Part shown: positions 42,426 to 48,843 of the stretch, piece by piece
Layout of the letters: each line of letters starts with the position of its first letter
Numbering within the stretch: position 1 is the first letter of the stretch
Source: Escherichia coli
GTDB taxonomy: Bacteria; Pseudomonadota; Gammaproteobacteria; Enterobacterales; Enterobacteriaceae
NCBI RefSeq assembly: GCF_003334315.1
Contig: NZ_QOWR01000017.1
Length of the DNA stretch: 64,000 nt
Reading direction: 5' to 3' (one strand)
Made by a program: the position numbers and the translations under genes
Notes under the pieces: model-generated
The model's input: the letters and a program-made list of their open reading frames with translations, nothing else
What the model was told of the DNA's origin: nothing
Database searches by the model: none

Positions 42426-45674
<3,249 letters not shown>

Positions 45675-45702
45675 AGGCAGTACATTAAAACAAGGAGCGG
45701 CA

Positions 45703-46614
45703 ATGTATTACGGGTTTGATATTGGTGGAACAAAAATTGCGCTTGGCGTGTTTGATAGCGGTCGGCAGTTGCAGTGGGAAAAGCGGGTGCCGACACCGCG
45801 TGACAGCTATGACGCATTTTTAGATGCAGTGTGTGAGCTGGTAGCTGAAGCTGACCAACGTTTTGGCTGTAAAGGTTCTGTCGGCATCGGTATTCCGGGA
45901 ATGCCGGAAACAGAAGATGGTACGCTGTATGCCGCCAATGTCCCCGCTGCCAGCGGTAAACCGCTGCGTGCCGACCTGAGCGCACGTCTTGATCGCGATG
46001 TACGCCTTGATAACGATGCCAACTGTTTTGCCCTTTCAGAAGCCTGGGATGATGAATTTACTCAATATCCACTGGTGATGGGGTTGATTCTCGGCACCGG
46101 TGTTGGCGGCGGGCTGATTTTCAACGGCAAACCGATTACCGGTAAAAGCTACATTACCGGCGAGTTTGGCCATATGCGTCTGCCGGTTGATGCGTTAACC
46201 ATGATGGGGTTGGATTTCCCGTTACGCCGCTGCGGCTGTGGTCAGCATGGCTGCATTGAAAATTATCTGTCTGGTCGCGGTTTTGCGTGGCTGTATCAAC
46301 ACTATTATCATCAACCGTTGCAGGCTCCCGAAATTATTGCGCTTTATGATCAAGGCGATGAGCAGGCAAGGGCGCACGTTGAGCGTTATCTGGATTTATT
46401 AGCGGTTTGTCTGGGAAATATCCTGACCATCGTTGACCCTGACCTGGTCGTCATTGGTGGTGGCTTATCGAATTTCCCGGCAATCACAGCGCAACTGGCG
46501 GACAGGCTGCCTCGTCATCTCTTACCTGTAGCTCGTGTTCCGCGCATTGAACGCGCGCGCCACGGTGATGCGGGAGGAATGCGTGGTGCGGCCTTCCTAC
46601 ATCTAACCGATTAA
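45703..46614 (+). CDS. nagK: N-acetyl-D-glucosamine kinase NagK
   Basis: ORF 45643..46614; start taken at [15 protein letters not shown] (303 aa); ROK family. Confidence 0.93.
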
Positions 46615-46629
46615 ACAACAGAGGTTGCT

Positions 46630-47469
46630 ATGCTGTCGCGTCGGGGTCATCGGTTAAGTCGTTTTCGTAAAAATAAACGCCGCCTGCGCGAGCGTTTGCG
46701 TCAGCGTATTTTTTTCAGAGATAAAGTGGTGCCGGAAGCAATGGAAAAACCAAGAGTACTCGTACTGACAGGGGCAGGAATTTCTGCGGAATCAGGTATT
46801 CGTACCTTTCGCGCCGCAGATGGCCTGTGGGAAGAACATCGGGTTGAAGATGTGGCAACGCCGGAAGGTTTCGATCGCGATCCTGAACTGGTGCAAGCGT
46901 TTTATAACGCCCGTCGTCGACAGCTGCAGCAGCCAGAAATTCAGCCTAACGCCGCGCATCTTGCGCTGGCTAAACTGCAAGACGCCCTCGGCGATCGCTT
47001 TTTGCTGGTGACGCAGAATATCGACAACCTGCATGAACGCGCAGGTAATACCAATGTGATTCATATGCATGGGGAACTGCTGAAAGTTCGTTGTTCACAA
47101 AGTGGTCAGGTTCTCGACTGGACAGGAGACGTTACCCCAGAAGATAAATGCCATTGTTGCCAGTTTCCGGCACCCTTGCGCCCGCACGTAGTGTGGTTTG
47201 GCGAAATGCCACTCGGCATGGATGAAATTTATATGGCGTTGTCGATGGCCGATATTTTCATTGCCATTGGCACATCCGGGCATGTTTATCCGGCGGCTGG
47301 GTTTGTTCACGAAGCGAAACTGCATGGCGCGCACACCGTGGAACTGAATCTTGAACCGAGTCAGGTTGGTAATGAATTTGCCGAGAAATATTACGGCCCG
47401 GCAAGCCAGGTGGTGCCTGAGTTTGTTGAAAAGTTGCTGAAGGGATTAAAAGCGGGAAGCATTGCCTGA
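46630..47469 (+). CDS. cobB: NAD-dependent protein deacylase CobB (sirtuin), long isoform
   Basis: 279-aa ORF with Arg-rich N-terminal extension, then the sirtuin core ([10 protein letters not shown]...). Confidence 0.94.
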
Positions 47470-47560
47470 TGCACTACGCTTATCAGGCCTGCAAGGGGAC
47501 GCAATTAATTGAATTTGCGGGTTTTGTGGGCCGGATAAGGCGTTCGCGCCCCATCCGGCA
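47464..47560. repeat. REP/BIME elements downstream of cobB
   Basis: gcctgatgcactacgcttatcaggcct and gggccggataaggcgttcgcgccccatccggca. Confidence 0.75.
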
Positions 47561-47588
47561 TAATACACGCGCACTTTTCCGGCCTCTT

Positions 47589-48376
47589 TTATCGTTTACT
47601 CGTCAATAACAATGCGGCAATAAACGTACAGACACCAATTAGCCCTGCCCAGAGTGGCGATATTCTGGTAATCGCAAAGCTATTATCGATATACAAACAT
47701 AAAGCCTGATAACCCATATTGGCAATAGTCATCGCCACTGCAAATTTTAACGCATAAATAAAACGAGTCGTGTAGTAAAAGATCCTGGAAAATAAGATAA
47801 ACGTCGCAGCCCAGGCGATAAAACCTAATGTGTTGGTGCTGCCGGGGGGAGCATTTTCATGCTGTTGTCCTGGATGCGGATAATACGTTAGTGGCGGCGT
47901 CGATTGTTTTAATATCTGTGCTTGTAGAACAGCCAATGCATTATTGATTCCCTGATACCAGAGATCTGCATTTAAATAAGCCAGCGTGTGATTTTCTATC
48001 AGAAGGCCGAGATGTTTATCGTCCAGACCACTTTCAACCTGGCCGTTGGTGATCATAATTAACCGTGGTTCGCGGGTAGTAAATAGTAACAGAACACTTC
48101 CTTTTACATCACTCAATGAAGATGACGCATGCGCCAGCATCGCTTTACCATTTTGTCTGAGACTGGCTTCATTATTAATGTCGGGTAAAACCACAATAAA
48201 CGGTGCAATTCCCGTTTGTTGGCGAAAAAGCTCGGCTTATGCGCGATCTCTTCAGCATCTGGTACAGTACCGGTAACGTCCGTAAAAAGTGTCTTCATTA
48301 TTGGAATTAATGGCTTGCTGGCTGCTGTCAGAGGCAGGAGTATCAGTAAACTGAGCAGTATAATGAATTTTTTCAT
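47589..48376 (-). pseudogene. ycfZ: ycfZ, inner-membrane protein gene apparently disrupted by a -1 frameshift
   Basis: N-terminal ORF 48113..48376 (signal peptide [22 protein letters not shown]...) and C-terminal ORF 47589..48194 are in different frames; the second frame reads ...AELFRQQTGIAPFIVVLPDINNEASL... straight through the junction after a TAA, so a single base missing near 48238-48240 would join them into a 262-aa protein. Confidence 0.7.
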
Positions 48377-48843
48377 GGGCGGGACTTCCGTTTCCTGCGT
48401 GATTTTTTAGAGGAGGGCATACTTATTAATAAACCGACGGCGATAAAAATAACGCCCATAATGCCGATAAACCCCCATTTAAAAAAATTAACCCACGGGT
48501 TATTTATCTCAGCCTTTTCAGGATGCCCGGGAGAATAATAAACATTAACTTTATCGCCTTCGCTGTCTTCATAAAAATCGCTGCCGATACTCGAATTGAA
48601 AATTAGCGTGTAATCTGGCGTCGGTCGAAAGGCAACGACGGGATACCACGAACCATCTTTACCCGTGCGATGAGAATGACTGGAGTGCCAGACGGTATCA
48701 ACAATGACGCCTTCGGTATGAATCGCGTCTTTGCTATAGGTGAACTGGTTATAAAAGACAACAACAGAAATGAGGATCAGTACCAGACCGATACCGAGGA
48801 ATATACGAAAGAAAACTTTACTGTCCTGACTCATTAGCCACAT
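48373..48843 (-). CDS. ymfA: Inner-membrane protein YmfA
   Basis: 156-aa ORF (reference-like start may be 9 nt downstream); two TM segments. Confidence 0.85.

Follow-up and report, generated by a model that had tools for sequence, protein, structure and literature searches.

The question raised by this locus is where translation of cobB begins, and whether it begins in one place or in two. In the 64,000-nt stretch of Escherichia coli DNA analyzed here (contig NZ_QOWR01000017.1 of assembly GCF_003334315.1; the whole stretch is called the window below), the long cobB open reading frame (ORF) covers 840 nt on the plus strand (46630..47469), from an ATG at 46630 to a TGA at 47467..47469, and encodes 279 aa plus the stop. 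A second, in-frame ATG at 46741..46743 encodes Met38, the first codon of the sirtuin core, and is preceded by 37 residues. The two starts correspond to CobB-L, whose start is the one annotated in RefSeq, and to CobB-S, a 242 aa product encoded by 46741..47469 on the same strand. The choice between them decides whether the cell’s main lysine deacylase carries a regulatory tail, i.e., a segment for which binding of c-di-GMP, polyphosphate and DNA, mediation of oligomerization, and a site of N-terminal acetylation have all been published.

The cobB reading frame and its surroundings

The original prediction, which spanned 46630..46745 (the 37 extension codons and the first 5 nt of the core), held that the ORF encodes a highly basic 37-residue N-terminal extension before an internal Met that begins the sirtuin core. 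The ORF translation bears this out: the length and sequence given for the extension are exact, and so is the core sequence quoted from the internal Met onward. Residues 1-37 comprise 12 Arg and 3 Lys (15 K/R), one His, and three acidic residues, for a net charge of +12 and a pI of 12.0, as against an acidic remainder of 242 residues with a pI of 5.4 and 21 K/R versus 32 D/E. From the sequence, CobB-L should weigh 31,464 Da (31.46 kDa) and CobB-S 26,716 Da (26.72 kDa), in agreement with the bands published for each.

The gene is E. coli cobB, encoding the NAD+-dependent protein deacylase (sirtuin). In a RefSeq record with 100% identity, the annotated cobB is the long version of 840 nt, with WP_000952737.1 as its product, and the 1.2-kb region around the gene was found in 5426/5426 complete E. 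coli genomes at 90-100% identity, with less than 80% of the region covered in 22 of the 5426. The locus order is lolE-nagK-cobB-ycfZ, the last three genes being annotated in the matching E. coli genomes. The SIR2 catalytic domain (Pfam PF02146) was assigned to residues 48-221 (46771..47292, plus strand) with an E-value of 5.8e-54. Residues G48, A49, G50, S52-I57, H147, C155, C174, C176, and C177 are invariant in an alignment of 44 sequences; going by sirtuins in general, we take the G48-I57 residues to be the NAD-binding motif, H147 the catalytic His, and the cysteines the zinc site. In structure searches, CobB residues 39-279 are identical to chain 6rxj_A except for one construct-boundary residue (P14 in the chain versus E39), and 1s5p_A matches residues 40-274 with an E-value of 1e-161. 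The solved E. coli CobB structures recovered in this way all start at residue 39 or 40, and the tail has therefore never been seen in any structure.

Several features of the neighboring sequence can be recorded here. Straight after the cobB stop, the convergent cobB-ycfZ spacer (window 47470..47570) holds palindromic sequence of the GCCGGATAAGGCG...CATCCGGC type that by eye is REP-like, and such REP-like sequences probably explain both the extra matches per genome and the plasmid matches of the 1.2-kb region. The downstream gene ycfZ (window 47589..48376, minus strand) is split by a frameshift near 48238 into ORFs of 87 aa and 201 aa; strain CP53 has an intact 262-aa gene, from which the allele here differs by the loss of one A (CATAAAG to CATAAG). 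An identical 101-nt stretch of ycfZ occurs in at least eight complete genomes, so the frameshift is a real circulating pseudogene allele and not a sequencing error specific to the window; in the one record opened, that of strain RCAD0514, RefSeq marks ycfZ as “frameshifted”. Upstream, the mechanically listed nagK ORF (window 45643..46614, plus strand) starts at a TTG 20 codons ahead of the annotated start and overlaps the end of lolE. RefSeq gives nagK as 303 aa, and the upstream TTG start is almost certainly an artifact of ORF listing. In E. coli E1433 (L082, 3231..4537, corresponding to the window from 46630 onward), an IS1 element stands in place of cobB beyond codon 52 or so, of the whole of ycfZ, and of a portion of ymfA, so cobB has been lost naturally in this diarrheal isolate.

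Conservation and predicted structure of the arginine-rich tail

On one reading of the locus, CobB-S is the sole real product: the ORF would run 37 codons further upstream by accident, and the long start would be a misannotation. The habits of the field would suit this reading, since the core beginning at residue 39 or 40 is what all of the crystal structures and most of the enzymology are based on, and so would the alignments of more distant sirtuin families, which begin no earlier than about residue 31-40. To set against it is the history of the tail itself. We took the 80 best genome loci, with one genome per species, located the core in each by tblastn, and read upstream to the nearest stop; conservation counts refer to 81 Enterobacterales loci from at least five Enterobacterales lineages. 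A homologous, ATG-initiated basic extension of 35-43 residues is present in 81/81 of these loci. Within the tail alignment a basic block at residues 4-31 (46639..46722, plus strand) is conserved, with R8, R22, and R24 invariant and R4, L9, R11, R17, F28, and D31 conserved at 90% or more. Nei-Gojobori counts among close relatives, with E. coli as the reference, gave a pN/pS of 0.09 for tail residues 2-31 and 0.07 for the core, i.e., purifying selection on the basic block as strong as that on the core. The basic block is separated from the core by a variable linker, KVVPEA (residues 32-37; 46723..46740, plus strand), which evolves nearly neutrally at a pN/pS of 0.74-0.97 and which differs among loci in length and sequence, with insertions in Hafnia and Edwardsiella.

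The signals for starting at Met1 are conserved as well. The nagK stop (TAA, 46612..46614) and cobB are separated by a spacer of 15 nt, within which lies the CobB-L Shine-Dalgarno sequence AGAGG (46620..46624, plus strand), placed 5 nt before the ATG and forming an anti-Shine-Dalgarno duplex of -6.5 kcal/mol. Strong Shine-Dalgarno sequences precede Met1 in 81/81 loci (-3.9 to -9.2 kcal/mol, mean -6.9). The curated NCBIfam equivalog NF001755 also includes the tail: the protein reaches 599.8 bits, where the cut-off is 318, residues 1-275 correspond to profile positions 1-275 of 278, and the 37-residue peptide by itself matches positions 1-36 with an E-value of 8.9e-12. Because the tail is conserved, its pN/pS is low, and a Shine-Dalgarno sequence stands ahead of Met1 everywhere, CobB-L is, judged by comparative evidence, a genuine protein under selection and no accident of annotation. 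Since CobB-L has also been detected in vivo (PMC12926920) and ligand binding depends on the tail (10.1101/362293), we give the reading in which CobB-S alone is real practically no weight; it is already refuted by the conservation data together with the published western blots. For annotation purposes, 46630 is the correct primary start of the coding sequence, and Met38 at 46741 merits a note on alternative initiation.

The shape of the tail was approached by prediction. AlphaFold2, run with 44 homologues, placed a helix at residues 4-28 with a pLDDT of about 50, unpacked against a confidently predicted core. A tail helix of such low confidence tells little beyond suggesting flexibility, and the model is consistent with a tail that is conditionally ordered. 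The usual description of the tail is a single amphipathic helix, and we do not endorse it: the helical hydrophobic moment of residues 2-31 was 0.205 against a shuffle mean of 0.254, a value reached by 61% of shuffles and hence not above them. A tail charge of +12 beside an acidic core would fit the binding of polyanions.

The internal start, its lineage pattern, and its signals

Position 38 encodes ATG in 52 of the 81 loci and GTG in 4 (ATG or GTG in 56/81), and a further 10 loci have an ATG 4-5 codons upstream. The pattern follows lineage. Among the 48 Enterobacteriaceae loci, 44 have ATG at position 38, two (Citrobacter) have GTG, and two have an ATG 4 codons upstream; ATG is likewise found in all 5 Yersinia and all 3 Hafnia/Edwardsiella loci, and GTG in both loci from the Pectobacteriaceae. 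The 8 Serratia/Rahnella-type loci have CTG or CTA at position 38 and an ATG 5 codons upstream. In the 15 Erwinia/Pantoea-type loci the residue is His (13) or Tyr, and 14/15 have no nearby in-frame start. The lineage pattern fits a review according to which Enterobacteriaceae, Erwinia excepted, may have kept both isoforms (PMC8603916), and it agrees with what Tucker 2010 reportedly states.

The local signals for initiation at Met38 are another matter, being weak or modest, and the sequence alone would not prove that Met38 is used. The best anti-Shine-Dalgarno pairing in the 20 nt upstream of ATG38 is -3.6 kcal/mol, and a pairing at least as good is found at 28% of in-frame cobB positions. The RNA fold predicted for 46700..46790, around ATG38, has neither significant structure nor a significant lack of it (z = +1.08), and an Rfam scan of 45500..48500 matched no RNA family. 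Published start-site data were also consulted. cobB goes unmentioned in the main text of the Ribo-RET preprint (10.1101/520783), in the main text and the supplements consulted of a 2026 N-terminomics paper, and in an mBio 2024 proteoform paper; confirmation of the cobB starts by start-site profiling was thus not found in these Ribo-RET, N-terminomics, and proteoform texts.

These observations would sit comfortably with the view that only CobB-L is genuine in E. coli, in which case Met38 would have no special role, and proteolysis or a plasmid artifact would account for the short species. The Shine-Dalgarno pairing at ATG38 is weak and unremarkable, the Erwinia/Pantoea-type CobB works without any internal Met, and the start-profiling texts consulted did not yield the internal start. 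Yet CobB-S is made by constructs that are incapable of making CobB-L (PMC6209979), both bands are obtained from the MG1655 chromosome with an anti-CobB antibody (PMC12926920), and ATG or GTG has been kept at position 38 in 56 loci, right beside a near-neutral linker, with 10 more loci having their ATG 4-5 codons upstream. We therefore regard a cobB that makes only CobB-L as very improbable, and return to the reading in which both proteins are made.

Just upstream of the internal start, the coding sequence appears to be constrained at the nucleotide level. The block TTC AGA GAY ARR GTG GTG (46714..46731, plus strand) lies 10-27 nt upstream of ATG38 and is conserved as nucleotides: Arg30 is encoded by the rare codon AGA in 33/37 Enterobacteriaceae loci and Arg32 by AGA or AGG in 27/28, whereas CGN exceeds 97% at the eleven remaining Arg positions of the tail in Enterobacteriaceae, and AGR makes up 11% of the Arg codons of the core. 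Phe29 is invariably TTC in Enterobacteriaceae only. Conservation of the rare AGR codons is confined to this spot and to clades having ATG38. In the Erwinia/Pantoea-type loci, where the internal start is generally absent, Arg30 and Arg32 are both encoded by CGN (15/15). Synonymous divergence reaches its minimum for the gene in the 12-codon segment 32-43 (0.47 versus a mean of 0.67, sd 0.09). The low divergence and the conserved rare codons together are suggestive of an embedded signal near ATG38; since the Enterobacteriaceae form one clade, the rare-codon pattern is suggestive and not proof. We infer that the AGA-GAY-ARR-GTG-GTG block may be part of the signal for CobB-S expression. That it is a cis-element setting the CobB-S:CobB-L ratio, either as the start/discriminator region of an internal promoter or as a purine-rich enhancer of translation initiation, is a tentative proposal that we would put forward as possible rather than probable. 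If it were true, the lineages without the block, i.e., those of the Erwinia/Pantoea type, would make the long form only.

The transcripts were addressed experimentally by Umehara et al. 2018 (PMC6209979), who expressed C-terminally tagged E. coli cobB from a nested series of fragments truncated on the upstream side. CobB-S alone was made when the fragment began at -30 or +1, and nothing when it began at the CobB-S codon; from this series, the promoter for CobB-L was mapped to nagK (-417..-30) and that for CobB-S to cobB itself (+1..+111). Converted to window coordinates, the mapped CobB-L promoter region is 46213..46600 (plus strand), and the BPROM candidate hexamers within it (-347..-319) fall at about 46283..46311 on the plus strand, as TTGCGT (46283-46288) and TATTAT (46303-46308). 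The candidate internal promoter for CobB-S in the same paper (BPROM, +51..+83) converts to 46680..46712 (plus strand), with a -10-like TATTTT at 46707..46712. Our own sigma-70 and terminator consensus scan of 46100..47700 returned no promoter-like site, with 1.6 expected from shuffles, and a scan of this kind can neither confirm nor locate the published cobB promoters. The -10 hexamer of the CobB-S candidate is poorly conserved between genera; the nucleotide conservation at 46714..46731 is compatible with a promoter inside the extension-coding region.

The remaining rival dispenses with the internal promoter altogether. It has one mRNA with two starts, CobB-S arising mostly by internal initiation at 46741 on the CobB-L transcript, whether nagK-promoted or bicistronic. 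Such a mechanism would suit the failure to detect a consensus promoter within the extension-coding region, as well as the poor conservation of the candidate -10; moreover, both the low synonymous divergence at codons 32-43 and the Shine-Dalgarno-like stretch GTGGTG/GGAAG would suit a purely translational signal. The deletion constructs speak to the contrary: those from -30 or +1 lack the CobB-L promoter and still yield CobB-S, and the construct from the CobB-S start yields nothing (PMC6209979), which places a promoter between +1 and +111. A single mRNA with two starts accordingly seems unlikely to us, although less so than a cobB that makes one form alone. The preferred reading remains that of two transcripts: CobB-S is reported to be translated mainly from a separate mRNA whose 5' end lies within the tail-coding region, which goes beyond a mere second start on a shared message. 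Because of this separate transcript, the alternative translation starts of cobB are coupled to alternative transcription starts.

Two proteoforms and comparison with known systems

Taken as a whole, the locus would be a single gene from which two promoters and two start codons give two proteins, and we are confident, short of certainty, that cobB of the window gives the two proteoforms CobB-L and CobB-S in this manner. What our own analysis shows is the anatomy of the ORF, the conservation of the tail as protein, how the internal start is distributed over the phylogeny, and how strong the Shine-Dalgarno sequences are; the production of both proteins, the promoter mapping, and the ligand binding are taken from the cited papers. 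CobB-L (279 aa, 31.5 kDa) would initiate at the ATG at 46630, behind a good Shine-Dalgarno sequence and 15 nt past the nagK stop, on an mRNA that either begins inside nagK or arises from nagK read-through. CobB-S (242 aa, 26.7 kDa) would initiate at the ATG at 46741, mainly from a second transcript whose promoter would lie within the 111 nt encoding the extension. The extension itself is bipartite, a conserved Arg-rich block (4-31) being followed by a 6-residue linker that evolves freely; the prediction for it is a flexible tail with weak helicity at most, undocked from the core.

The role reported for the tail is a regulatory one: it binds c-di-GMP, with inhibition, as well as polyphosphate and DNA, and drives the formation of dimers or oligomers. 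In a 2026 NAR paper (PMC12926920), both isoforms (31.5 and 26.7 kDa) were detected in MG1655 by an anti-CobB antibody, and polyphosphate and dsDNA were bound by CobB-L only. According to a preprint (10.1101/362293), binding of c-di-GMP requires residues 1-37, specifically R8, R17, and E21, and inhibits the enzyme; of these, our tail alignment shows R8 without variation and R17 conserved at 90% or more. In Salmonella, the CobB tail mediates oligomerization (PMC10965786), and activity falls when YiaC acetylates the CobB N-terminus (reviews including PMC8603916). The choice of start would then be a choice between a regulatable, polyanion-tethered deacylase and a free catalytic core.

The original prediction had read the two in-frame Met codons as consistent with two CobB isoforms from alternative starts, and had added that this was known biology. 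The first claim is supported, both isoforms having been reported in E. coli (PMC6209979, PMC12926920), and is refined by the separate CobB-S transcript; the second was correct, both isoforms being already published for this species.

The CobB of E. coli K-12 (PMC6209979, 10.1101/362293, PMC12926920) is the same gene, with no difference of substance: its tail likewise has 15 basic residues among 37, CobB-S begins 111 nt after the first start, and the bands run at 31.5 and 26.7 kDa. In the strain analyzed here, the adjacent ycfZ carries a frameshift. CobB-L and CobB-S of Salmonella enterica, as later papers cite them from Tucker and Escalante-Semerena (2010, J Bacteriol 192:6200), share the 37-residue Arg-rich extension, the internal Met at the core boundary, two active isoforms, and the pair of promoters, one in the upstream nagK (ycfX) and one inside cobB. 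The Salmonella locus (L010) has adjacent Met codons 37 and 38, where E. coli has Ala37-Met38, and its CobB is 273 aa versus 279 aa because the E. coli C-terminus is longer; the two proteins otherwise differ by species-level substitutions only. The Erwinia/Pantoea-type CobB, for which the long isoform only is expected, has a basic extension homologous to that of E. coli (MRTPRRRLRLARYKKTRRKVHQRFRQRIFERD...) ahead of the same sirtuin core, but differs in having His or Tyr at position 38, a linker without an in-frame start in 14/15 loci, and CGN at Arg30 and Arg32. A more distant likeness is to infB, clpB, and mrcB, which, according to the Ribo-RET preprint (10.1101/520783), share with cobB a full-length and an N-terminally shortened protein of differing properties; these three are described as cases of internal initiation, whereas the short form of cobB is reported to have its own promoter inside the ORF. 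The two-isoform finding for cobB is thus correct and already known, and the system is the same as that of Salmonella and E. coli K-12 CobB; what is new are two increments only, a broader survey of the internal start across lineages and the conservation of rare codons just upstream of it.
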